A stretch of DNA of 32,000 bases from Nitrosococcus oceani ATCC 19707 (GCF_000012805.1 NC_007484.1:3300001-3332000), one strand, 5' to 3'; positions 6,888-18,341 are shown, counted from the stretch's first letter. A program made the numbers and translations. The notes: a model not told the origin generated them from the letters alone.

Positions 6888-6963
6888 GGCCAGGTAGCTC
6901 AGTCGGTAGAGCAGGGGACTGAAAATCCCCGTGTCGGCAGTTCGATTCTGTCCCTGGCCACCA
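6888..6963 (+). tRNA. tRNA-Phe (anticodon GAA), CCA encoded
   Basis: GGCCAGGTAGCTCAGTCGGTAGAGCAGGGGACTGAAAATCCCCGTGTCGGCAGTTCGATTCTGTCCCTGGCCACCA. Folds by eye into a cloverleaf: 7-bp acceptor GGCCAGG/CCTGGCC, anticodon loop CT-GAA-AA, T-loop GTTCGATTC. Confidence 0.95.
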
Positions 6964-7243
6964 AATAAAACAATAGCTTGCGAAACCGTCTTTGAGCGGG
7001 TCTTTTTCGCTGTGGAGGCCAAGTGGGGTATCACTTGCATACCCCAATTTTCCGCCAAGTACCGCTTCGGTCATAATTTCACTTGCCGAATAACCCCTCA
7101 TCTCTCCCATTTTATTGTCCCATAGGGCTTCCCCATCATCCGTCTGAAGATTCTTGTAGCGAGCCTAATCTCAGTTTATAGCGCATTGGGTTAGGGCGCG
7201 GCAAAAACTGATATTTTCAGAAAAAATAATAGATTTAATCTTA

Positions 7244-7399
7244 CGGTAGGAGGGGAAGTGATGCGCGTGGAGGGTGATACCCAACCGAGGGCCTTGAGCG
7301 CTAAGTCGTGGCCAGCCCAAGACACCCATTGAAGCGCGAATTCTCCAGGCTGATGAGGTTTTGTAGGAACAAAATCGACATCAGTCATGGCGAAACTCC
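7244..7399 (-). repeat. Repeat family X, copy 2 (immediately 3' of the RayT remnant on the minus strand)
   Basis: Aligns with 3698..3852. Hairpin 7358-7375 (GTTTTGT-agga-ACAAAAT) matches the copy-1 hairpin with the stem conserved and the loop changed. Confidence 0.6.
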
Positions 7400-7552
7400 A
7401 AATTCATGCACCAGCTCGATGATCTTGGCCCCCAGGGCGTGCCAGAGCAGCTTGCCATGACCGCTCTCGGCGGCTTCACGGATTCATAGACCTGGGTGAG
7501 CCATTTGTAATCCCTAGCATCGATATAGCCACGCAGCAAGGTGGCCGCGCCC

Positions 7553-7684
7553 CTAGAGATAGGATTCAAATTCTGATTGGGAGTTGCGCGTGCAGATGGT
7601 CACGAAATACGCACCCGCCCGGGAATAATCATAATTCTGTAATCGGATCGAACGGCGGCGGTGGATAGAAGGGTTGTAGGTCAT
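7553..7684 (-). pseudogene. Truncated REP-associated tyrosine transposase (RayT / IS200-like Y1 transposase), N-terminal 43 codons only
   Basis: MTYNPSIHRRRSIRLQNYDYSRAGAYFVTICTRN is the stereotyped N-terminus of COG1943/RayT proteins. The frame stops at 7553 and no HUH/Tyr domain follows in any frame. Confidence 0.7.
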
Positions 7685-7762
7685 GGCAGCAATCCGTTTT
7701 GGCCAGCAATGCTTGCAGCCTATCCTCGGCCGCATACGCCGCCTGCAATGACTCCCTTGAGA

Positions 7763-8085
7763 TTAGCGATGGCCTGAGCGAGGGTCATGGCCGATATTGG
7801 CGCTTTTGGCACGGATCTCCTGCCAGTGACAGCCTTCCAGCACCTGGAAGCGATGGTTCTCCGGGAATTGCGCAAACTCCGCATCCCCTTCGGACTCTTT
7901 CAGGGCGGTAGCGAATTCTTCGTCGTAGACATCGGCGATTCGCTTGAAGAACAGCAGGGGGAAGATATAGGTTTTGAAATCAGCCGCATTGACTGGCCCA
8001 CGTAGAATATTGGCAGCCTCCCAGAGATGGACCGAGAGGGTTCCGATATCCAGCGTTGCCTTATTGGGTTCCTTTTTTTTCGCAT
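7763..8085 (-). pseudogene. hsdM: Type I restriction-modification methylase HsdM, N-terminal fragment, frameshifted and 3'-truncated
   Basis: My own minus-strand translation gives LDIGTLSVHLWEAANILRGPVNAADFKTYIFPLLFFKRIADVYDEEF...FQVLEGCHWQEIRAKSANIG, the HsdM_N signature. The ATG at 8085 is out of frame across an A8 tract (8073-8080); A9 would join them. Homology ends near 7735 where RayT-associated sequence begins. Confidence 0.7.
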
Positions 8086-8423
8086 TGCTCCTCTACAATA
8101 CTTGGCGTTCATGGGTTTCTAATCAAGAATTGGCGGCGGGCGAGAGTTTAGATCGCGTTTACTCAGCCCATGGAGGGGAATTGTACTGCCCCACGGCACG
8201 TTGTTGGAAATGCTGCCGATTCGCCTGCTTTAACTACTCGCTTTGGCGCTCAATTGGAGAATGGCAAGATTTTTTCTATGACCGCTTACCCTGCCAGGCC
8301 CGTGGGTGCCGGTAAGATTAAGCCGCTACCAATAAAGGGCGCGTACTAGGGATAGAGGCTCTTAAACTATTAGATTAAATCCCTTCAATATGGTATTTTC
8401 CAACAAGCGTTTTTGAGCTTAAA

Positions 8424-8846
8424 TTGACTACTACTACCAGCAAAGGATTTCGCGTGAACGCATTCAAAAGAATTGGCGCTATTATTGCCATCACTCTGGT
8501 ATTAAGCGTGTTTGTTGCCCTAATCAGCTATCAATGGCCCAGGACGGCAACCTTCAGAATTGTAGACACTGAAGTCAAGCGCATTGAGGGTGGGGACCAA
8601 TACCGTATCACCGCCATTCGTCAAGAAGATGACAAACGGATGGTGCTTCGCAACGAAGACGCTTGGTATCGGTTTAAGTTCGACAGCGCCGACATCCAGG
8701 GCGATGCAGCCATCGCGGAAAAGAATGATTTTATGGTGGAAATGACTTATTACGGCTGGCGCAGCAACCTCATGTCATGGTTCTGGAATGTGAGTGACCT
8801 TGACATTCTACGGGAAAAGGCGCCAGCCCCAACACCGCAAGAATAA
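8424..8846 (+). CDS. DUF1523-like membrane-anchored protein
   Basis: 140-aa ORF with an N-terminal TM helix, then IVDTEVKR......YRI........VLRNED.W......S.D.Q........M....YGWR...MS.F.N, resembling DUF1523. The listed start is TTG; the GTG at 8451 has a better AAGGA upstream. Confidence 0.5.
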   Translation: MTTTTSKGFRVNAFKRIGAIIAITLVLSVFVALISYQWPRTATFRIVDTEVKRIEGGDQYRITAIRQEDDKRMVLRNEDAWYRFKFDSADIQGDAAIAEKNDFMVEMTYYGWRSNLMSWFWNVSDLDILREKAPAPTPQE

Positions 8847-8894: not shown

Positions 8895-9560
8895 TCACTT
8901 TTTGGCCTCCCAAAATGTCAGTAAGTTGAACCACCGCCCCACTGCCTGGACCTCATAGAAGCCCGCGGCAGCCAAATAATCTGGAATTTCCCCGCGAATA
9001 TGGGCAACGAGGGCAGGCATGAATAATTGGGGCCATACGCCTAACCACCATAGGGGGTGGCCCGGCCGGTCAAAATCCACTGCTAGCAAGCGTCCGCCCG
9101 GCTTGAGCACACGATGGATTTCTTCTAATCCCTGCCGTTTCAATTCCGCCGGCAAATGATGCAACATTAAGCTGGATAGCACCACATCAAAAGTTTCGTT
9201 CCCAAAAGGAAGGCGCTCCACAACGCCCAATTTGAACTCCGCTTGACTCTGGGCGCGGGCCGCCTTTTTCCTTGCCAAGGAAATCATGGGAAGAGAAGGA
9301 TCAACGCCTACCACCTTCCCCGAGGGGCCGCTCTTCTCCGCCGCCAATTGTGTCAGCACGCCGGTCCCGCACCCCACGTCCAAAATTTGCTCGCCAGGGC
9401 TCAATTGGGCATGGCGCAGGGTCTCCCGCCGGAACTTCTTTCTCAGACCGACCAAAGCGCACTCCAAATCATAAATGGGCGCTTGCCATTTGAGCACGGC
9501 CCCCCGAGTTTTAGGGGCCACTTCCCTGCTTGAATTCTCCATAGCATTATTCCTATCCAT
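8895..9560 (-). CDS. Class I SAM-dependent methyltransferase (Methyltransf_11/UbiE-like)
   Basis: 221-aa ORF with motif I ILDVGCGTG and DVVLSSLMLHH...LKPGGRLL. Its first ~33 codons lie inside direct repeat A. Confidence 0.8.
   Translation of the reverse strand: MDRNNAMENSSREVAPKTRGAVLKWQAPIYDLECALVGLRKKFRRETLRHAQLSPGEQILDVGCGTGVLTQLAAEKSGPSGKVVGVDPSLPMISLARKKAARAQSQAEFKLGVVERLPFGNETFDVVLSSLMLHHLPAELKRQGLEEIHRVLKPGGRLLAVDFDRPGHPLWWLGVWPQLFMPALVAHIRGEIPDYLAAAGFYEVQAVGRWFNLLTFWEAKK
9460..9552. repeat. Direct repeat A (93 bp) bounding the RM/HipBA island
   Basis: CACTCC...GGCGCTTG.CATTTGAGCACGGCCCCCCGAGTTTTAGGG.CCACTTCCCTGCTTGAAT.CTCCATAG.AT.ATTC recurs at 17193..17285 with roughly 10% mismatches and one 1-nt indel. 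Confidence 0.85.
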
Positions 9561-9583
9561 GCTTCAAACTCGATACCTAATTC

Positions 9584-12500
9584 CTATTCCACATGACCCA
9601 TCATCCCTGCAACATCCATTGCCTTGATATAGCGGACGGGGTTTTCTGTGTCTTTTGCAATTTCTTCAAAGTGCCGTTCTCCGCACTTGATCTTCGCTCC
9701 TTCAAGGTGGCGTAAATCATCCCACCACGCGCTGCCTTTGGTCTCAACCACAAAGTAGAGCTTTTCCTCACCGCCATCTTCCACAACGACAGCCCAATCG
9801 GGGTTATAGGAACCGAGCGGCGTTGGCACTTTGAACCACGGGGGCAATTTGGCGTAAACTTTAACTCTTTCGTTCTTCTCCAAGTCTTCGGCGAAGGACT
9901 TCTCCACGCTTCCCGAGTCATACACGACATGGGTGTATACGGATTTTTGTACTTCCAGCGTATTCTTCAGATAGCCTTTCAACTCTTCCTGCTTAAAAAG
10001 TGCCTGGGCATAGCCGTGATCGTCACCGATCTTAGTGTATTTGATGCCGTCAACAAGCGCTAGCCGCTTAGTACGGTTAATCGCCTCGGAACAATAGTCG
10101 ATGAATTGCTGGGGATTGCGCAGGAAGTCCTGAAGCCTTCGGCTCTCCCTGAGTATCTGGACGATACTTTTTCGAGTGAGCTGGGTCTTGTCCTGCAAGT
10201 CGGTAATAATATCGGGCAACTCGATATCATTTTCGTGGATTGTGGTATAGCCGGAAGCGCTGGTTTCCTGAACCCCTACGCCACCTTTACCGATAGCAAT
10301 ATCCGCCTTTCTGAATTGGGCGCGGGTTTTGGTAATCGGCGGGCAGCTTCTTATGGCGTCGGCGCAATCGTTCAGGAGCTTCAGGTTGTCGAACTCCACA
10401 CGGTACGTGGTCTTGTACTTGATCCGCTCCCAGAGCAACCGGAACTCATCGGATTCAAGAACAGCTTCCCGCGTTCGAATGATTTTCCGATCATCGGCGT
10501 TCTTGATATCCAGCTTGCCAGCCAGCTTGCGTAGAACCGCCTGAATATCCGATGTGATTATATCAGTCTGTTCCTCTCCGTGATTCTTGACAAGCTCCTG
10601 CTTGATTTCCTCTGGCAGCTCAAAGTTTCCGTTTTTCAACGCGGCGCGAAGACTGTCCTGCACCTTACCTTTTACATCCACAAATTGCTGATCTTTGAGG
10701 AACTGCCAAATCTTCTCTGACTGTTCCACCCCCAAAGGTGCAACCTCGCCTTGTTCGTTGAGGGTTTGAATGGTCGCGAATTGGTGTGGTTCGACAATGC
10801 CGAAGCGAATACCCGTATCCTGTTCGATCTCTTTTTGCAGGTTATCGGCAAATTTTTCGTAGTTTTCCGTGGCAATTACGGTCAGCGTGTTCACGTCGTT
10901 GCCGCGAAGCCGTTCGCCATTCTGATTGACGCAGAGACGCAGGCCACGGCCAAGGGTTTGGCGTCGCTCCCGTTCGCTTCCCATGTCGCGGAGCGTGCAA
11001 ATCTGGAAAACGTTGGGATTGTCCCAACCTTCCTTCAGAGCGGAGTGAGAAAAAATGAATTTCAGCTTGGTATCAAAGCTCAGTAGCTTTTCCTTCTCCT
11101 TCATAATCAGGTTGTATGCCCGCTCTGCATTGTCGCGGTTCGCCTGATTATTCTCGGCGGTGTCGACAGATCGGCCTTTCTTATCAATAGAAAAATAGCC
11201 GTTATGCACCTCGTCCGCCCCAGCCTCCAGATCAATTTCCCTGAACAGGCTTTGATAATCCGCTGACTTGGCCAGCTTGCGGTATTCCTCCTCGAACATC
11301 CGAGCGTACTTGCCCTTAACAGCGTTACCGTCCTCGTCGTACTGGCGGTAGTGCGTGACACTATCAATGAAAAATAGGCTGAGCACTTTGATTGGCTTCT
11401 TGTTCGCAGCGAACATCAGCTCCTTATCGAAGTGCTCCTTGATGGTTCGCCGGATCATCAAGCGCTTGATTTGGTCGGGATCAACGCCACCAATGGCCTC
11501 GCCTGGTCGAAGCCGTTGATCGAAGCCGTCGCCCTTGACCTCAATGGACTCATTATCTTTGCCACAGGTAATGGTACCCATCTGCATGTTTTCATAAATG
11601 GAGCGGCCTGTGATCTGCTCCAGATCGTCGCCGTCCTCCACGGTTAGGAATTCTCGCCGGACATTCTTGCCGCGCTGAACATCCACTTCCACTTTGGCGG
11701 TAATTGATCCTTTCCGGTTATCCGTGGAGTCCAGCCGGATATAGGGTTTGTTGTGTCCACTGTCGATCTGGAGTGACGCCACCTCAATCTGCTTAACCAA
11801 GCCTCGCTCATAGGCGTCCACGGCATCCAAGCGGAAGGTCATGTGATGCTTGTCCACATGGGTCGCGGAATAACGCAGGGTGCACAACGGATTCATCGCC
11901 GTGAGCGCTTCCTTGCCTTTGCCTGTCAGGCCACCGTCAACGCTTTGTGGCTCATCGACAATAATGATCGGGTTCGTGGCGCGAACAAGGTCAATCGGCT
12001 TTTCACCACCTGTATTCTCGTTTTCCTTGTATAGATTGTTGACATCCTTTTTATTGATCGCGCCGACCGTCGTCACCATGATCTGGATATTGGAACTGGT
12101 AGCGAAGTTGCGCACCTGACCCAGCTTGGAGGAATCATAGAGGAAGTATTCGTAGCCCTTGGCCTTCGGGTACAAGCCTTCAAAATGCTCTTGCGTGATT
12201 TGCAGCGTCTTATAAGTACCTTCCTTAATCGCAATGGACGGCACGACAATCGCGAACTTGGTGAAGCCGTAGTTCTTGTTCAGTTCAAAGATCGTGCGCA
12301 AATACACGTAGGTCTTGCCCGTTCCGGTCTCCATTTCAACGGTAAAGTCTCCGCTGGCTAGCTTCTTGGTAGGCCGCAGGCCATTCTGAAGTTGCACCTT
12401 ACGCAGGTTTTCTTCAATTTCTTCATCAACCAACAAGAGCCTGTTGCCGATACCGAGCTGATTCTCCTCCAAACCCAAAGATAAGTTGAGGCTAGACTCC

Positions 12501-12616
12501 GGCTGGAATGTCACGGTGAATTCAGAGCGGGATATTTCCTGTCCTTTAAACAGACTGACAACCGAGTCTATCGCGGCTTTTTGGTAATCCAGATCGTCTT
12601 CAAATTGGAGTTTCAT
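9584..12616 (-). CDS. res: Type III restriction endonuclease, Res subunit (SF2 helicase-nuclease)
   Basis: 1010-aa ORF. Walker A-like METGTGKT, DEAH-type IIVDEPQ, helicase C motifs (QTLGRGLRL), C-terminal PD-(D/E)XK-like YNPDW.VV......YFVVETKG. Sits directly downstream of mod. Confidence 0.9.
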   Translation of the reverse strand: MKLQFEDDLDYQKAAIDSVVSLFKGQEISRSEFTVTFQPESSLNLSLGLEENQLGIGNRLLLVDEEIEENLRKVQLQNGLRPTKKLASGDFTVEMETGTGKTYVYLRTIFELNKNYGFTKFAIVVPSIAIKEGTYKTLQITQEHFEGLYPKAKGYEYFLYDSSKLGQVRNFATSSNIQIMVTTVGAINKKDVNNLYKENENTGGEKPIDLVRATNPIIIVDEPQSVDGGLTGKGKEALTAMNPLCTLRYSATHVDKHHMTFRLDAVDAYERGLVKQIEVASLQIDSGHNKPYIRLDSTDNRKGSITAKVEVDVQRGKNVRREFLTVEDGDDLEQITGRSIYENMQMGTITCGKDNESIEVKGDGFDQRLRPGEAIGGVDPDQIKRLMIRRTIKEHFDKELMFAANKKPIKVLSLFFIDSVTHYRQYDEDGNAVKGKYARMFEEEYRKLAKSADYQSLFREIDLEAGADEVHNGYFSIDKKGRSVDTAENNQANRDNAERAYNLIMKEKEKLLSFDTKLKFIFSHSALKEGWDNPNVFQICTLRDMGSERERRQTLGRGLRLCVNQNGERLRGNDVNTLTVIATENYEKFADNLQKEIEQDTGIRFGIVEPHQFATIQTLNEQGEVAPLGVEQSEKIWQFLKDQQFVDVKGKVQDSLRAALKNGNFELPEEIKQELVKNHGEEQTDIITSDIQAVLRKLAGKLDIKNADDRKIIRTREAVLESDEFRLLWERIKYKTTYRVEFDNLKLLNDCADAIRSCPPITKTRAQFRKADIAIGKGGVGVQETSASGYTTIHENDIELPDIITDLQDKTQLTRKSIVQILRESRRLQDFLRNPQQFIDYCSEAINRTKRLALVDGIKYTKIGDDHGYAQALFKQEELKGYLKNTLEVQKSVYTHVVYDSGSVEKSFAEDLEKNERVKVYAKLPPWFKVPTPLGSYNPDWAVVVEDGGEEKLYFVVETKGSAWWDDLRHLEGAKIKCGERHFEEIAKDTENPVRYIKAMDVAGMMGHVE

Positions 12617-12634
12617 TTACTTTGAATCCAAATT

Positions 12635-12710
12635 AACCACGGAACACACAGAATACACTGAAAAATATAATGGTGACTCATTTCCGTGTTATCCGTGTTT
12701 TCTGTGGTTT
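12635..12710. repeat. Imperfect inverted repeat (29-30-bp arms) made of CACGGAA-like units, mod-res intergenic
   Basis: AACCACGGAACACACAGAATACACTGAAA (12635-12663) versus the reverse complement of TTTCCGTGTTATCCGTGTTTTCTGTGGTTT (12681-12710). 23 of 29 positions match, 17-nt loop. Confidence 0.85.
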
Positions 12711-12716
12711 ATATCT

Positions 12717-14591
12717 TTACAAGCTGCGTACATGGGTTATACCGCTCTGCTCCAGAATGGCGGCCATGTTGGTTTTCGAAACATCATCGCTGAAGGCGCT
12801 ATCACGGAAGAAGACGTGGGTGTCAGAGCTTGGCGCAAGCTCCCGATGCCACTCGACGATACTTTGACCAATTTCCTCGACTTGATCCTTGTTGATGGAC
12901 TCATCCAGACAAGCGAACAAGACGCCGTAGCCAATGCTGTAGATGTTTTTGCCTAACACTTCACGGCTTTCGATGGGAACAGCAAGGTCTACGCCGCGCT
13001 TAAGAAGAAGTTCATAAAGAATATCATTCTCCGAACGCCCTTCGATCAAGTGCTCCTGTTGAGACAATAGACTTTGTTCTAAGTCTTGCCGATCAGGGTT
13101 CCATGCTTGAATATTCGAACTTGATAGTTTAAAAACTTTAAATCCCTGATCGAACGTCGCATCGGGATTTTCATTGGTGATCTTTTTTCCAGCTTCTTTT
13201 ACTCTTCTTTTACCTATATCTGCGATCGATCTGTACGACTCACTTTCCAGCAACTCAGGCAGTTGCACCATAATAAACCTTCTATTCGAGCCTTCATTGG
13301 CATTTATATTTAGTATCGCATGGGCAGTAGACGCAGAGCCAGCAAAGAAATCCAAAACGATTTCTTCACTATCGCCACCGGTCGAAATACGTAGCATATG
13401 CTCAATTAGGCGGACAGGCTTAGGCGTATCGAATTTGATATCATCAATTAATTCTGAGAGAACTTTCGTTGCCTCTTGTGTATGGCCAACATCTGAGTAA
13501 AGCCAAACTGTTCTAGGTACGACTCCTTTTGCTTTTGATAAGAATTTTTTTAGTCGGGGTGAATTGCTCGTCCCATCTTTACCCCAGTAAATGATATTTT
13601 CTTCGGCGTGTTTCTGGCTCACCTCCCTCGAGTACTTCCATACAGCCGTCTTTTTTGGCCAAACATCCTGCCCAGTATTTGGATTTACTAGCGGGTAATA
13701 CAAATTTGGGCGCTCATCACTATCTTTGTTACACGTGTATGTCGCAGAGTTCCAATTACCCCTCGGGTCATTATCGGGGTTTGTGTAGTTGCTTTTTTGC
13801 CTCTCGTTCATAGGCAACTTAAATGGTCGCCATATCAGTTTATTCTTTGCGTAAACTAATATGTGATCATGGTCGCTGCTAAACCATGTAGCGTCATTGG
13901 ATGGAGATACTTTCTTTTGCCAGACGATACTGGTCACAAAATTTTCTTCACCGAAAATCTCGTCACAAACCTGCCTTAGTGTGGCCACTTCGTTATCATC
14001 TATAGTTATGAAGATCACTCCTTCCTGAGACAGTAGCTGTTTAGCTAATTTCAGTCGCGGATACATCATACTCAGCCAATTCGTATGTTTCCGGCCGGTT
14101 GATTCAGTGTTAGAAGAAAACTTCATTCCCTCATCATCAACTTGCCCTGTGTACTTGAGGTAGGTATCCAGATTCTCCTGAAACTTGTCTGGGTAAATAA
14201 ATTCCTTACCCGTGTTGTACGGCGGATCGATATAGATCATCTTGACTTTGTTGGCGTAGCTCTTCTGAAGCAGCTTCAAAACCTCAAGGTTGTCACCCTC
14301 GATAAACAGATTCTTGGTCGTATCCCAATTAATGCTTTCTTCTGGACAAGGCAGCAACGTCCCTGTGGATGGCGTAAGCGCTATCTGACGAGCCCTTTTC
14401 TTGCCATGCCAATTGAGGCCGTATTTTTCTTCGCCCTCATCTAGCACCTTGGCATCACCAAGCAACTGGTGGAGCACATCGAAATTGACACCGCTCTCGC
14501 TGAAAGCCTCGGGGAACAGCTCTTTCAATCGTTCAATGTTCTCTGAAACGATGTCGGCGCTTTCGCCTTCTTTTGGTTGTATTTTTTTCAT
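12717..14591 (-). CDS. mod: Type III restriction-modification DNA methyltransferase, Mod subunit (N6-adenine)
   Basis: ORF 12717..14627. IYIDPPYNTG catalytic motif and a C-terminal FAGSASTAHA AdoMet motif. Start moved to Met 14591 because the 12 upstream codons are just the translated repeat. Confidence 0.9.
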   Translation of the reverse strand: MKKIQPKEGESADIVSENIERLKELFPEAFSESGVNFDVLHQLLGDAKVLDEGEEKYGLNWHGKKRARQIALTPSTGTLLPCPEESINWDTTKNLFIEGDNLEVLKLLQKSYANKVKMIYIDPPYNTGKEFIYPDKFQENLDTYLKYTGQVDDEGMKFSSNTESTGRKHTNWLSMMYPRLKLAKQLLSQEGVIFITIDDNEVATLRQVCDEIFGEENFVTSIVWQKKVSPSNDATWFSSDHDHILVYAKNKLIWRPFKLPMNERQKSNYTNPDNDPRGNWNSATYTCNKDSDERPNLYYPLVNPNTGQDVWPKKTAVWKYSREVSQKHAEENIIYWGKDGTSNSPRLKKFLSKAKGVVPRTVWLYSDVGHTQEATKVLSELIDDIKFDTPKPVRLIEHMLRISTGGDSEEIVLDFFAGSASTAHAILNINANEGSNRRFIMVQLPELLESESYRSIADIGKRRVKEAGKKITNENPDATFDQGFKVFKLSSSNIQAWNPDRQDLEQSLLSQQEHLIEGRSENDILYELLLKRGVDLAVPIESREVLGKNIYSIGYGVLFACLDESINKDQVEEIGQSIVEWHRELAPSSDTHVFFRDSAFSDDVSKTNMAAILEQSGITHVRSL

Positions 14592-14603
14592 GTTTTTCTC
14601 TTT

Positions 14604-14675
14604 AACCACGGAACACACGGAATACACTGAAAAACCATGTTGTTATTTCCCTGTTGTTTGGGTATTCCGTGGTTT
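14604..14675. repeat. Second inverted repeat of the same family, between the GxxExxY gene and mod
   Basis: AACCACGGAACACACGGAATACACTGAAAAA (14604-14634) versus the reverse complement of ATTTCCCTGTTGTTTGGGTATTCCGTGGTTT (14645-14675). The outer 10 bp are perfect. The right arm overlaps the GxxExxY stop codon. Confidence 0.8.
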
Positions 14676-15057
14676 ACATAACAATTCGTTCAATTTCAAC
14701 CTTGGGATAGTGCCCAAAATTCACCAGCAACCCTAAACGCATGCCAGCTGCTTTTAGGTAATTATGCACCTGCGCCCGATGTTCATCAGCCAAGTTACTA
14801 ATAGCTTTAATTTCAACAATTATTTTGTCATGACAAATAAAATCTGGCTTGTAGGTTTGCTTCAGCGGCACGGATTTGTAAATAAGTATGAGCTCCGGTT
14901 GCGCGATGTAGGCAATTCTTTTCCTTGAGAATTCCCTAGCCAGACATTCCTGATACACCGACTCAAGAAAACCACAGCCCATCTCCCTGTAAACCTCAAA
15001 CACCGCCCCGCGAATCGCGTAACTTTCTTTCTCGTAAATAATTCCTTTCTGTGTCAT
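14674..15057 (-). CDS. GxxExxY protein (PD-(D/E)XK nuclease fold, PDDEXK_3-like)
   Basis: 127-aa ORF with GAVFEVY..MG.GFLE.VYQ..L..E.......Q......Y.......Y..DF......IVEIKA...L...H.AQ..NYLKA.....GLL.NFG, the family signature. Confidence 0.85.
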   Translation of the reverse strand: MTQKGIIYEKESYAIRGAVFEVYREMGCGFLESVYQECLAREFSRKRIAYIAQPELILIYKSVPLKQTYKPDFICHDKIIVEIKAISNLADEHRAQVHNYLKAAGMRLGLLVNFGHYPKVEIERIVM

Positions 15058-15075
15058 TCCGTGTATTCCGTGGTT
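15055..15075. repeat. Solitary arm of the CACGGAA repeat overlapping the GxxExxY start codon
   Basis: Minus strand reads AACCACGGAATACACGGAATG with ATG as the start codon. There is no partner arm within 400 bp upstream. Confidence 0.75.
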
Positions 15076-15438
15076 CCATTAAAGACCCTCCGTGATCTCG
15101 GTAATCCTGTCTTTAAGCTTTTTTACTTTCGTATTCAGATCGACCTGCCTGCCCATTTACTTCTCTTTCTTGAGCTTATTGGCAACTTAGCTGTTATTTC
15201 CGTTGGCCAGTAACATGCGTTCCGCCCCTTATTCCTTTTGGCTTTTCTTGTTGCGCTCCATCCATTTTTCGATGTCGGACTGCTTAAGATTATGATTCCG
15301 TCATTTATCACTTTATCCATCCAAAACGATACGCGAGAGAATAAGAAAATATTGAGCAATCGACAACCGGACGACCCTTTAAAATCTGGTCAAAGCTAGC
15401 CGACCACCCTTCCTGCGATACAGAACGCGCATTTTTCC

Positions 15439-15467
15439 TTGACAAGGAAGCACTAATTCAGTATTTT
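15439..15467 (+). promoter_or_regulatory. Candidate sigma-70 promoter of hipBA
   Basis: TTGACA (15439-15444), 17-nt spacer, TATTTT (15462-15467). Confidence 0.6.
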
Positions 15468-15470
15468 GAG

Positions 15471-15511
15471 TTTTATATAGACCATAAAGAGATTTTATGG
15501 TCTATATAAAA
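15471..15511. promoter_or_regulatory. Perfect 18-bp inverted repeat, probable HipB operator
   Basis: TTTTATATAGACCATAAA-gagat-TTTATGGTCTATATAAAA, located between the -10 and the hipB ATG at 15526. Confidence 0.65.
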
Positions 15512-15525
15512 ACCATTTTAGCACG

Positions 15526-15864
15526 ATGCCAAAGTCCATTGTACGTACTTACTCCCGTTATACCCGCGATGCGTCTGCCTTGCTCGGCGGATTGATCCGT
15601 ACCGCTCGTAAAGAACGTAGGCTCACCATGCAGGAAATTGCCGACCGTGCAGGTATTTCCAGAGGGCTGCTGCAACGCATTGAGAAAGGCGACCTTAAAT
15701 GTGAAATCGGCGCTGTGTTCGAAGTCGCAACCATTGTCGGGATCAAGCTGTTCGAGGCGGATGAAACTACGCTAACGAAGCACTTGCGCCGGACCGAAGA
15801 CAAATTGGCGCTGCTGCCGAAGTCCATTCGCAAGAAATCCAAGACGGTACGGGATGACTTCTAA
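15526..15864 (+). CDS. hipB: XRE-family HTH antitoxin HipB
   Basis: 112-aa ORF with HTH segment LTMQEIADRAGISRGLLQRIEKG. Overlaps hipA by 11 nt. Confidence 0.8.
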   Translation: MPKSIVRTYSRYTRDASALLGGLIRTARKERRLTMQEIADRAGISRGLLQRIEKGDLKCEIGAVFEVATIVGIKLFEADETTLTKHLRRTEDKLALLPKSIRKKSKTVRDDF

Positions 15865-17113
15865 TAAAGAAGCCTTCGTCTGGATTTGGCTGCCGGAAGA
15901 AACGAAACCCATTGTGGCCGGACGGCTAGAAGCAGACAACGGCCACATTCTGTTTAACTACGGCAAGAGCTATCTGGAGCGTATCGGGGATCAACCGCCT
16001 GCAATTCCAATTTACCAACCCGAGTTGCCGTTGAAGGCCGGAGTATTGCCACTGCCGAAAGGATTGACCATGCCCGGCTGTATTCGAGACGCCTCGCCCG
16101 ATGCCTGGGGGCGGCGCGTGATTATCAATAAGCAATTAGGTCTTAAAGGCGCTGGCACGGATACGGCCGAGCTGGGCGAATTGACCTACCTTCTCGAATC
16201 CGGCTCTGACCGGATCGGCGCGCTCGATTTTCAACGCTCACCATCCGAGTACATATCGCGTACGGCGAGCAACGTCAGCATAGAAGAGCTGATCGAGTCT
16301 GCTGACCGTGTCGAAAAGGGCGTTCCTCTTACGCCGGAACTAGATCAGGCATTATTCCATGGCAGTTCTATCGGCGGCGCTCGGCCAAAGGCTTTGATCC
16401 AAGATCAAGGCAAGAAGTATGTGGCCAAATTTTCATCCAGCACCGATCTCTACAGCATCGTCAAAGCCGAATTTATTGCTATGCGACTAGCGGCATGGGC
16501 TGGACTTAATGTTGCCCCCGTTAAACTGGCTAAGGCAGCAAATAGGGACGTGCTGCTGATTGAGCGATTTGACCGTATTCCGCAAGGCAGCGATTGGTCA
16601 CGCAAGGCTATGGTTTCCGCGCTCACGTTGCTTGGCCTCGATGATATGATGGCCCGTTACGCCAGCTATGAAACGCTGGCCGAAATTATCCGTCATCGTT
16701 TTACCGACCCGAAGAATACACTGAAGGAACTTTTCTCTCGGCTCGTTTTTAATATTCTGTGCGGCAATACCGACGACCACGCGCGAAACCACGCCGCGTT
16801 TTGGAACGGCGAGGCACTGACCCTGACCCCTGCCTATGACATTTGCCCCCAAGGCCGCACGGGCAATGAAGCGTCACAGGCTATGTTGATTGCAGGTAAC
16901 AACAACCTCAGTCAACTGAAAACCTGCCTTGAAACTGCACACAATTTCCTACTCTCCGCGGAAGATGCCCAGGCTATCTTTGGAAATCTGACTGCCGCCA
17001 TCGAACAGCATTGGGATGCCGTCTGTGAAGAAGCCGAATTGAATGAAGTGGATAAGAGGTTCTTGTGGGGACGACAGTTTCTAAACCGCTACGCCACGAT
17101 GAATCTCAACTAA
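15854..17113 (+). CDS. hipA: HipA-family serine/threonine kinase toxin
   Basis: 419-aa ORF. N-terminal coupling domain (VWIW.......VAGRL), GSSIGGARPKA P-loop-like motif, catalytic NTDDHARNHA. Confidence 0.88.
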   Translation: MTSNKEAFVWIWLPEETKPIVAGRLEADNGHILFNYGKSYLERIGDQPPAIPIYQPELPLKAGVLPLPKGLTMPGCIRDASPDAWGRRVIINKQLGLKGAGTDTAELGELTYLLESGSDRIGALDFQRSPSEYISRTASNVSIEELIESADRVEKGVPLTPELDQALFHGSSIGGARPKALIQDQGKKYVAKFSSSTDLYSIVKAEFIAMRLAAWAGLNVAPVKLAKAANRDVLLIERFDRIPQGSDWSRKAMVSALTLLGLDDMMARYASYETLAEIIRHRFTDPKNTLKELFSRLVFNILCGNTDDHARNHAAFWNGEALTLTPAYDICPQGRTGNEASQAMLIAGNNNLSQLKTCLETAHNFLLSAEDAQAIFGNLTAAIEQHWDAVCEEAELNEVDKRFLWGRQFLNRYATMNLN

Positions 17114-17192
17114 TACAAATTGTTCGCCAGCGCTTAATTGGGCATGGGATAAAGTCTCCCATCAGGGTTTCTTCCTCAAACTAACCAAAATA

Positions 17193-17287
17193 CACTCCGC
17201 GTCGTAAAATGGCGCTTGTCATTTGAGCACGGCCCCCCGAGTTTTAGGGACCACTTCCCTGCTTGAATCCTCCATAGAATCATTCAT
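17193..17287 (-). pseudogene. Direct repeat B: decayed duplicate of the methyltransferase 5' end
   Basis: Minus strand reads MNDSMEDSSREVVPKTRGAVLK*QAPFYDAEC, against MDRNNAMENSSREVAPKTRGAVLKWQAPIYDLEC at 9560. It has a TGG to TGA change and a 1-nt deletion. Its ATG at 17287 lies 10 nt after the hemS stop. Confidence 0.8.
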
Positions 17288-17297
17288 GGTTAATAAT

Positions 17298-18341
17298 TTA
17301 TACCGTGTGCAATCGGCTCTCTGCCGGGATTGATTCGCTCTCCAGGGCCCCTAATAAACTCTGCCAAATGGCATCTTCCCCCTGCCCCGGTGGAAACGGG
17401 CTGAATATCTGTAACACATTCTCTCCCGCCCAATTATATAACTCCAGGCAGGCTGGTGTATCCTTGTCTTCCGGTTTACGTACCAACCAGGCGCTGGCAA
17501 TTCCCGTCCTTTGTACGTAAAGGGTAAAATCGGTATCCAGGGCCGCAAGCCAAAGCCCGGTAGACTCCACCTGTTTGACGGTTCCCCCGTGGATTTGCAT
17601 TGCGCCCCCATTATCCACCTGAAAGATTAAAGGTAGCTCGGTTTCCCATAACACTTCCATCAATGCCCGTAAATCGGTTAGGAGCACAGGGGTAGCGAAC
17701 TCACGTCCCGCCAACCTCAAGCCTTGAATTCGGCTCGCCCCAAAGGATCTAAAAAGCGCGGGAAGATCACGAAGATCCTGAAGTTCTCGCCATGCCTCCC
17801 GAAGCCGAGTGACATCAATTACTTCATCGGCCCGGGGGGGCAACCGTGGCACTGGTGCCACTGATTGACGGGGCCGCTGATCGGCGCTGCGATAGCAGGC
17901 GACTAAGTTTTCATAAGCCCTCCAGTCGCTCTCTGCAGTCAGGTAAATCTTATGTACGCTGACGCCATCCCGGTCAAAAAACTGCAAGCTATGACGGACC
18001 CCGTCGTCCCATAATTCTTTGACAGCAAAACCATAGTGCCAGTGATTGAGAAACAAGCGCAGATCAATACCCTCTCCCTGTATCCGCCCTAGGGAATCAA
18101 ATAATTTAACGGCCTGGTACTGGCCGGTCTGTTCGTGCACCGCATGCCGATTACCTGTCACGGCCCTTACTTTGTCTAATTGAGGCAATTCCTTAAGGAG
18201 ATCCCGTAGGCCACATAAACGAGTGACCATTTCCCCACAACAAGCCGCTAGCGTCTCAGCTTCACTGACTTCCCTAGGAATAGTTCTTTGCAAGCAAACC
18301 TTGGGCTTTGTTTGATCATGCGGCCACTGCGTCCTCAGCAT
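17298..18341 (-). CDS. hemS: HemS/ChuS/PhuS-family hemin-degrading / heme-trafficking protein
   Basis: 347-aa ORF of typical family length. LRLFL.HW...FAV.E......SLQFFD..G...HK.YL motif and a two-repeat architecture. Confidence 0.75.
   Translation of the reverse strand: MLRTQWPHDQTKPKVCLQRTIPREVSEAETLAACCGEMVTRLCGLRDLLKELPQLDKVRAVTGNRHAVHEQTGQYQAVKLFDSLGRIQGEGIDLRLFLNHWHYGFAVKELWDDGVRHSLQFFDRDGVSVHKIYLTAESDWRAYENLVACYRSADQRPRQSVAPVPRLPPRADEVIDVTRLREAWRELQDLRDLPALFRSFGASRIQGLRLAGREFATPVLLTDLRALMEVLWETELPLIFQVDNGGAMQIHGGTVKQVESTGLWLAALDTDFTLYVQRTGIASAWLVRKPEDKDTPACLELYNWAGENVLQIFSPFPPGQGEDAIWQSLLGALESESIPAESRLHTV

Follow-up and report, generated by a model that had tools for sequence, protein, structure and literature searches.

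The window analysed here is a stretch of 32,000 nucleotides (nt) from Nitrosococcus oceani ATCC 19707, a C-107-type strain (NC_007484.1:3300001-3332000); its methyltransferase and Res proteins are 100% identical to proteins of this organism. Our subject is a composite defence island situated between hemS and a methyltransferase gene. It carries a type III restriction-modification (RM) gene pair, res and mod, a small gene of the GxxExxY family, and the toxin-antitoxin pair hipBA, and it is bracketed by two long direct repeats, referred to as copy A and copy B. The flanking genes, the repeats and the limits of the island are as follows, with protein lengths in amino acids (aa) and ORF standing for open reading frame.

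8424-8846, plus strand: DUF1523 gene (Pfam), neighbour of the methyltransferase in all relatives
8895-9542, minus strand: class I S-adenosylmethionine-dependent methyltransferase, 215 aa from the conserved ATG (ORF to 9560); right flank
9384-9555, minus strand: copy A, the duplicated target and working methyltransferase 5' end, directly after the res tail
9556-9583, minus strand: conserved tail past the res stop codon, GGAATTAGGTATCGAGTTTGAAGCATG, marking the right end of the imported module
9558-17116: inserted DNA, a composite defence island of 7,559 base pairs (bp), lacking in six related lineages
17117-17288, minus strand: copy B, the original methyltransferase 5' end, with 13 nt before the conserved ATG and 159 coding nt
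17298-18341, minus strand: hemS (haem-degrading HemS/ChuX family, Pfam), left flank of the insertion site

Between positions 8500 and 18500, a repeat search returned a single family of long direct repeats (9384-9552 and 17117-17285, 169 nt, 80% identity). Ungapped alignment adds 3 nt and gives a repeat of 172 nt, 9384-9555 and 17117-17288, with 35 mismatches (79.7% identity). When copy A was compared with the whole window by BLAST, copy B was matched with an expect value (E) of 9e-41 and the runner-up with E = 0.11, so that the repeat is far beyond chance. Identity is distributed unevenly, with 7 mismatches in positions 1-78 (4 of them within the first 11) versus 28 in the last 94. The 93-nt core at 9460-9552 and 17193-17285, which an earlier note on this DNA, made from the sequence alone, had reported as direct repeats of about 90% identity, contains 11 mismatches (88%) and sits within this longer repeat. 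Homology extends to nt 172; its end falls immediately ahead of methyltransferase motif I (DVGCGTG) and leaves 3 nt to the hipA stop codon. The longest block identical between the two copies today measures only 30 nt, and RecA-mediated loss of the island should therefore now be inefficient.

Copy A forms the 5' end of the ORF 8895-9560 on the minus strand, whose product begins MDRNNAMENSSREV, in agreement with its earlier description as the working start of the methyltransferase gene. The start that is conserved among relatives and used in public annotation is the second ATG, at 9542. Copy B translates as MNDSMEDSSREVVPKTRGAVLK*QAPFYDAEC with TGA codons in frame, and its ATG (17287-17285) lies 10 nt past the hemS stop codon (17300-17298), in line with its reading as a dead copy in the earlier note. 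It is continuous with hemS on one side and ends next to hipA on the other. Copy B is the original start of the gene, now present as a pseudogene fragment.

Loci with an empty site were found via contigs encoding homologues of the methyltransferase. In six independent lineages the order hemS, methyltransferase, DUF1523 is unbroken; the amino acid identity of their methyltransferase to that of the window amounts to 86% in L019/L018, 81% in L005, 80% in L006, 77% in L021/L022, 75% in L007 and 72% in L106. In these lineages hemS and the methyltransferase gene overlap by 4 nt at one extreme and lie 28 nt apart at the other, and the target that is duplicated in the window is single-copy in all six. 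By BLASTN, the empty-site loci align with the window from hemS through copy B to 17117-17121 without a break; a second alignment starts in copy A and takes in the methyltransferase gene and DUF1523. The empty sites, together with this continuity into copy B, establish that hemS and the methyltransferase gene were once adjacent and that the DNA between the repeats is an insertion. Both had been proposed in the earlier note, which had counted res, mod, the GxxExxY gene and hipBA as inserted; it had advised a search for relatives with an uninterrupted hemS-methyltransferase junction, and the six lineages supply that junction. As DUF1523 constantly adjoins the methyltransferase gene, the latter is a resident gene and not cargo. 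A scan of the genome collection with HemS returned only distant relatives from Competibacteraceae and Longibacter (41-48%), and in one of these loci (L001) hemS is not followed by the methyltransferase.

As an observation apart from the island, the trio hemS-methyltransferase-DUF1523 is kept in every relative examined, and hemS and the methyltransferase gene nearly abut or overlap. This conserved arrangement suggests a functional link, unstudied so far, between this methyltransferase and haem handling.

The right junction can be placed from homologous operons elsewhere. The 28 nt past the res stop codon recur unchanged in locus L105 and almost unchanged in locus L023, and the sequences of both loci part from the window directly behind ...GAAGCATG, where copy A begins; hence the insert spans 9558-17116. 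L105 also encodes the closest Res relative (94%), within an operon HTH_17-SNF2-DUF4391-mod-GmrSD-res. Genes for ArdA, a relaxase and MobC lie beside it, which places this operon on a mobilisable element. Res is 80-94% identical at the amino acid level to proteins named from many unrelated Gamma- and Betaproteobacteria, and HipA 83-88% to proteins named from several phyla. Such conservation across the orders and phyla of the source names implies that both modules have probably spread widely and recently by horizontal transfer. Among 80 metagenomic mod-res loci, none has a methyltransferase fragment, hemS or hipBA beside it. The mod-res module thus travels without a methyltransferase 5' end. Long direct repeats flank only two of the 80 related loci (74 nt in L062, 39 nt in L060) and are thus no regular feature of the module.

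The genes of the island were identified with Pfam, PADLOC and NCBIfam.

9584-12616, minus strand: res, type III restriction endonuclease/helicase subunit, 1010 aa (Pfam ResIII and RE_endonuc; PADLOC REase_III, 1201 bits)
12717-14591, minus strand: mod, type III DNA methyltransferase, 624 aa from the ATG at 14591 (Pfam; PADLOC MTase_III)
14674-15057, minus strand: GxxExxY/PDDEXK_3 small nuclease-fold protein, 127 aa (Pfam PF13366, 1.7e-40; TIGR04256)
15093-15400, minus strand: remnants of DUF4391, SNF2 helicase and HTH_17 genes, left from a module of about 4 kb that is intact in strain AFC132
15439-15467, plus strand: promoter-like site for hipBA, TTGACA-17-TATTTT (promoter scan)
15474-15508, plus strand: palindrome upstream of hipB with 15-nt arms, TATATAGACCATAAA/TTTATGGTCTATATA
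15526-15864, plus strand: hipB-like helix-turn-helix (HTH) antitoxin gene, 112 aa, overlapping hipA by 11 nt
15854-17113, plus strand: hipA-family kinase toxin gene, 419 aa (Pfam HipA_C, 5.7e-51, and Couple_hipA); its stop codon abuts copy B

By their domains, mod (an N6_N4_Mtase with a variable recognition region) and res (a helicase with an endonuclease domain) are predicted to form a type III RM system. The match of res to NF012027 reaches E 3e-110 but, with 370 bits, stays under the model's curated cut-off of 564. The central, target-recognition part of mod (approximately 13140-13940) cannot be aligned with that of N. watsonii or of N. oceani AFC132. The hipBA pair has the make-up of a putative type II toxin-antitoxin system of the HipBA kind, in which an HTH gene directly precedes and overlaps a kinase gene whose product has HipA_C and N-terminal coupling domains. 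The palindrome at 15474-15508 is a plausible HipB operator, a candidate by its position and symmetry. The promoter and terminator scan gave counts not above shuffled expectation, and the hipB-proximal site is kept as a lead only.

All five genes listed in the earlier note were recovered; remnants of three further genes had been overlooked there. They comprise the last 93 nt or so of DUF4391 (15093-15185), about 40 nt from the start of the SNF2 helicase gene, and an HTH_17 gene (about 15229-15395) with an internal deletion of 103 nt. The island had also been described as free of integrase and transposase genes, and indeed no Pfam domain of either kind occurs in its ORFs or in those of the island variants of N. 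watsonii and AFC132. Nor were recombinase remnants found with Pfam at E up to 0.1 in ten intergenic ORFs inside the island and beside tRNA-Phe.

We now turn to the distribution of the island within the genus. In all ten listed N. oceani contigs that carry the methyltransferase gene (14 were read), res or the island lies directly upstream as far as the contig reaches. N. watsonii (L004) has, at the same site, hemS and, after about 30 nt, what remains of the hipA 3' end (83 nt), followed by the GxxExxY gene, mod, a 57-aa gene, Abi_2, a frameshifted res and the methyltransferase gene. On the right side it shares the junction of the window, namely the res tail followed by copy A, with AGG in place of the ancestral ATG. 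Nucleotide identity between N. oceani and N. watsonii is 82-85% in the island and 85-89% in the flanks. For hemS, it is 87.5% between the two species and only 83.5% and 81.9% to L019, which places the branch of L019 outside both. The shared junction and the flank-like divergence show that the insertion happened once, before N. oceani and N. watsonii separated, and that the island has passed down by vertical descent since. Independent insertions in the two species were considered and rejected, in view of the identical right junction, including the change from ATG to AGG, and of the hipA remnant beside hemS. As the junctions are the same in C-107, AFC132 and N. watsonii and divergence is like that of the flanks, the island does not appear to be currently mobile.

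Since its arrival the island has eroded and its content has turned over. N. watsonii has lost copy B and hipBA, and its res is frameshifted. N. oceani AFC132 (L103) possesses a fuller version, composed of res, Abi_2 (AbiD), a 76-aa gene, mod, GxxExxY, DUF4391, an SNF2 helicase gene, HTH_17, hipB, hipA, copy B and hemS. From inside res to the hipA stop codon, the L103 portion already measures about 11.3 kb, and we estimate roughly 13 kb with the rest of res. Compared with this variant, the 7.6-kb island of the window is a deletion derivative of a larger ancestor of roughly 13 kb. N. oceani of the C-107 type has lost the helicase module of about 4 kb by deletion, for AFC132 and the mobilisable element L105 keep it intact, as well as the AbiD cassette that is found between mod and res in AFC132 and N. 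watsonii. The remnant of the helicase module in N. watsonii differs from that of the window.

Divergence between AFC132 and the window is far from uniform. The side from hipBA to hemS is 98.8% identical, and the 184-nt spacer between hipA and hemS that holds copy B (17114-17297) is identical at 184 of 184 positions. Against this, the mod 5' part reaches 87.9% (L103 1-4626 versus 9584-14591) and res only 89.9%; the res of AFC132 is closer to that of N. watsonii (90.7%). A divergence of mod-res that greatly exceeds that of the adjacent flank points to allelic replacement, whereby restriction systems would have been exchanged by recombination within N. oceani.

The gap between mod and res serves as a slot for extra defence genes (window 12617-12716; L103 1450-2608; L004 5869-6970; L105 8317-10008). 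It contains AbiD/Abi_2 and a small ORF in AFC132 and N. watsonii, GmrSD in L105, and a hairpin only in the window; inserts of 1.5-1.7 kb occupy it in several metagenome loci (L024, L026, L046, L075).

The origin of the two repeat copies was deduced from site patterns. Compared with L019, copy A is 85-88% identical over the duplicated part, and the rest of the gene is 84% identical. Sites at which both A copies, those of N. oceani and N. watsonii, differ from copy B and L019 number 4 of 159, and equivalent changes on the stem lineage in the 3' part number 16 of 489. Copy A is thus without excess divergence and bears no sign of foreign origin; these site patterns rule a foreign origin out. Copy B keeps four ancestral bases, giving F and A in PFYDAEC, which it has in common with L019 and mostly also with deeper outgroups. 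At these sites both A copies are altered (PIYDLEC). Ancestral bases that B has kept and both A copies have lost indicate that B split from A before the species separated, and they exclude copy B as a recent copy of A. The distal part of copy B (gene positions 67-159) shows 15 unique changes in 93 nt, about 1.6 times the number in the coding copy over the same period, as one would expect of a pseudogene. Copies A and B are best read as one host segment that would have been duplicated at the insertion.

The proximal part of the repeat has a different history. It includes the following tract.

9478-9544 (copy A), paired with 17211-17277 (copy B), minus strand: gene-conversion tract, 3 mismatches in 67 nt

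A maximum chi-square analysis places the breakpoint at position 78 of the repeat (p = 0.022 by permutation). Between gene positions 1 and 66 there are three derived bases (at 16, 36 and 42) that both N. oceani copies possess and that are missing from N. watsonii, L019 and the other outgroups, and copy A of N. oceani is nearer to copy B of the same genome (60/63) than to its own orthologue in N. watsonii (55/63). The distal part of the repeat has no shared derived site of this kind. The pattern is the signature of a gene conversion of about 65 nt in the N. oceani lineage, which occurred after the split from N. watsonii and before that of C-107 and AFC132. Shared derived bases in the core are accounted for by gene conversion and not by a conserved crossover core. 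The earlier note had likened the repeats to attL and attR, the attachment sites of an integrated element; with a core of this kind and no recombinase, the likeness is not supported. More generally, the case cautions that a short, near-identical core within a longer, diverged repeat may be the product of gene conversion rather than an attachment site.

Taken together, we consider it probable, with reasonable though not strong confidence, that an old defence island was inserted here with a 172-bp target duplication, independently of a recombinase and by a known route of restriction-system entry. In this scenario, a composite island would have entered the hemS-methyltransferase junction by illegitimate recombination in the ancestor of N. 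oceani and N. watsonii. It would have consisted of hipBA and a type III operon of the order HTH_17, SNF2 helicase, DUF4391, mod and res, a kind of operon that a mobilisable element carries as well. The incoming DNA would have been joined to the host at two points 172 bp apart, with one end 10 nt past the hemS stop codon and the second at nt 159 within the ORF of the methyltransferase, whereby the host segment in between would have been duplicated. The simplest picture, as we see it, is that the ends of a linear fragment were joined apart from each other and the remainder was filled in, or that two sister duplexes were used. The distal copy A would have stayed attached to its gene and kept the methyltransferase intact, and the hemS-proximal copy B would have become a pseudogene. 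Vertical inheritance, erosion and remodelling, the exchange of mod-res alleles, and the conversion of about 65 nt between A and B in the N. oceani lineage would have followed. The methyltransferase gene now starts 41 nt downstream of the res stop codon, with an AGGA ribosome-binding site, and is probably transcribed by read-through from the res operon. Post-segregational killing by the restriction system and HipA may have stabilised the island.

The class to which we assign the event is the 'insertion of an RM system with long target duplication' of Furuta, Abe & Kobayashi (2010, NAR 38:2428, PMC2853133), who recorded it for RM types I-IV in several phyla, with repeats of up to about 420 bp; its original description is credited to Nobusato et al. 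(2000, Gene 259:99). Furuta et al. asked for R and M genes, an insert of less than 20 kb, repeats of more than 30 bp that are single-copy at the empty site, and the absence of mobility genes. Like their cases, the present locus combines res and mod with an insert of 7,559 bp (roughly 13 kb in the fuller AFC132 version), repeats of 172 nt and no integrase or transposase. It differs in several respects. The published cases consulted are mostly intraspecific polymorphisms with near-identical repeats, whereas the insertion studied here is older than a species split and its repeats are 80% identical with one converted tract. Furthermore, the insert is composite, comprising a toxin-antitoxin pair and accessory defence genes, and its target is a gene start, one copy of which has remained functional. 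Furuta et al. (PMC2853133) make no mention of Nitrosococcus in their main text, and we found no paper on this locus in the literature. A comparative study of N. oceani (PMC7285500) noted restriction-system variation between strains, though not these repeats, and cites Furuta et al. for restriction-system mobility in general.

Several points weigh against this assignment. Long target duplication is a descriptive class, the joining mechanism leaves no specific signature, and how such duplications form is not settled in the literature. The duplication starts about 13 nt from the start codon, just after hemS, which is either coincidence or selection and would also fit an element dedicated to preserving gene starts; we would attribute the position to selection for insertions that keep both genes whole. 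The outgroup contigs are metagenomic, and their branching order is taken from the identities of just two genes. The max-chi-square p-value is merely 0.022. Finally, hipBA and the restriction operon occur together at no other locus among the 80 checked, and may not have arrived in one event.

The best-surviving alternative is an integration of the Campbell type, in which RecA would have recombined into the chromosome a circle, either a plasmid or the imprecisely excised circle of a sibling, that carried the island together with captured methyltransferase nt -13 to 159. Homologous exchange was among the mechanisms considered in the earlier note and is retained to this extent, as a minor rival producing the same topology as the one seen. 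Campbell-type integration would agree with the local, Nitrosococcus-clade origin of both copies and with the mobilisable element that carries the closest res relative, and the boundaries of the repeat would simply be the ends of the captured fragment. However, it requires an additional, unobserved step in which precisely these 172 nt of the host were captured between res and hipA, and a junction of res, truncated methyltransferase gene and hipA is seen neither in L105 and L023 nor in the other 78 loci. It also explains the origin of the fragment no better than a direct duplication of the target does. We therefore rate it as unlikely.

Less probable again is a site-specific element of the e14 or phage 21 kind that aims at the 5' end of the gene, with an attP bearing a replacement 5' end and an integrase that was lost or acted in trans. 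The topology mirrors that of icd and icdC around e14, where the integration of e14 or phage 21 into icd displaces the icdC fragment (Hill et al. 1989, as summarised in PMC13626634): the functional gene adjoins the element, a homologous pseudogene fragment lies at the far border, and the repeats have diverged, as they have here. In contrast to our locus, e14 has its own recombination system, is excised upon SOS induction, targets a 3' end and brings a replacement segment, whereas here there is no recombinase and no sign of excision, the target is a 5' end, and both copies are evidently host-derived. A dedicated element could account for a duplication that starts almost exactly at the gene start, and the island does hold the remnant of an HTH_17 gene. 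HTH_17 is a Pfam domain that occurs also in excisionases. Yet this gene is the first of the helicase-mod-res operon in L105 and matches the defence component mad1, so that a regulator is more likely, and no integrase or remnant of one is present in three variants of the island. Moreover, copy A is not xenologous, similarity of the res tail to its counterparts in two other contexts ends precisely at the junction, the shared derived bases of the core indicate recent conversion, and one insertion stands against six empty lineages, without recurrence at the site. The earlier reading of the repeats as attachment sites, with a replacement 5' end supplied by the element, fails on three of these points, the lack of a recombinase, the local origin of copy A and the divergence of the res tail at the junction in L105 and L023. 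For the 172-bp repeats, the one more novel reading left is an element that needs no recombinase and keeps the start of the gene it targets intact, which we likewise consider very improbable.

Marginally weaker still is a local tandem duplication of the methyltransferase 5' end that came first, with the island landing later, by chance, between the copies. Furuta et al. list such a class, 'chance insertion between repeated sequences' (PMC2853133), and the final structure taken alone would be compatible with it. A tandem duplicate is present, however, in none of the six empty-site lineages, and the ends of the island match those of the repeats, within 3 nt at hipA and exactly at the end of the res tail, as is expected of a single event. 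An element anchored at a tRNA gene was rejected, because the tRNA and Rfam scans of the window returned only tRNA-Phe (6888-6963), 1.9 kb off, with the conserved methyltransferase and DUF1523 genes in between.

Insertion with long target duplication, as favoured here, would make the locus a clean and datable case of an RM system entering the chromosome without a recombinase, and one in which the aftermath can be followed: one copy of the target is under selection, the other decays, and gene conversion partly re-homogenises the pair. The class itself was described between 2000 and 2010, and its current understanding is unchanged by our findings. The island furthermore acts as a fixed platform on which defence cassettes come, are swapped and go, with AbiD (AFC132 and N. 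watsonii), GmrSD (L105), the helicase module and HipBA as examples. Integrase-free defence islands and chromosomal hotspots flanked by core genes are a general concept. Our locus resembles them in the clustering of several modules (type III RM, HipBA, AbiD, the SNF2-helicase module and GxxExxY) and in a content that differs between close relatives. In contrast to recurrent hotspots, however, six outgroup lineages are empty here, all occupied genomes derive from one insertion, and turnover proceeds inside the island.

The repeat architecture around the GxxExxY gene may be the one item in this study that is new. The gene is bracketed by inverted arrays of CACGGAAnA units; in the window an inverted pair, 14604-14623 and 15056-15075, is 95% complementary, and its counterpart in AFC132 measures 29 nt at 93%. 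The associated features are these.

12633-12714, minus strand: hairpin of about 75 nt without an ORF in the spacer between mod and res, reading TAA-ACCAC...GTGGT-TAA; an apparent derivative of the GxxExxY-flanking repeats
14602-14674, minus strand: hairpin immediately past the stop codon of the GxxExxY gene; the distal arm at 14604-14623 forms an inverted pair with 15056-15075
14602-15075: GxxExxY gene with arrays in the window; further instances are L103 4639-5109, L004 3383-3856, L093 6855-7299, L110 1439-1877, L115, L116 and L107

ORF-less hairpins of about 75 nt whose arms are those of the GxxExxY flanks, with a 27-bp stem, lie between mod and res in the window and between the SNF2 gene and DUF4391 in AFC132 (L103 5906-5998). 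All copies of the hairpin read TAA-ACCAC...GTGGT-TAA. The hairpins are lacking at the corresponding junctions of L105, L023, L025, L027 and L028, and, apart from one isolated 10-nt match in L083, the motif is found neither in 80 other mod-res loci nor in the rest of the window. They look like derivatives of the kind of miniature inverted-repeat transposable elements, which would provide a stop codon upstream and a ribosome-binding site downstream. The ends of integron attC sites follow the consensus RYYYAAC ... GTTRRRY. The ends observed here, TGTAAAC...GTTAAAG and TATAAAC...GTTAATT, misfit it, and there is no IntI; attC sites were thus dismissed.

The flanks of GxxExxY genes were compared for 15 genes in total, including twelve unrelated ones from one metagenome locus, four viral contigs and seven plasmids. 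Flanking inverted repeats with scores of 16-23.5 were obtained for 7 of the 15, the maximum in 367 control windows being 12. They represent 6 of 13 independent lineages, from several phyla and viral contigs, and two more are borderline. The arms consist of two to three 9-nt CRCRGAR units and are located between the previous stop codon and the ORF, and between the ORF stop codon and the next ribosome-binding site. The framed genes sit in the same orientation and are packed tightly between their neighbours.

Almost nothing has been published on the GxxExxY family, which is listed as of unknown function (PMC3424549). We tentatively raise the possibility, itself rather doubtful, that the gene and the hairpins represent tiny mobile elements of a family not yet described, whose insertion sites would lie within operons. 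In such elements, inverted CRCRGAR arrays of two to three 9-nt units would frame a gene for a PD-(D/E)XK nuclease. They would land between genes, often at TAA stop codons, would contribute a stop to one side and a ribosome-binding site to the other, and may help to remodel restriction operons. An RNA unit resembling an 'intervening sequence' is another possible reading of the GxxExxY unit. This side observation could open a small new question.

A second variable region, 6964-8292, begins just downstream of the 3' end of tRNA-Phe (6888-6963, plus strand). In N. oceani it comprises about 1.3 kb with short ORFs only, which have no Pfam matches, and at the corresponding place past tRNA-Phe N. watsonii carries a RelB/ParE pair (L004 11436-11907). 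The more distant L005, L006 and L018 carry bPH_2 genes after DUF1523.

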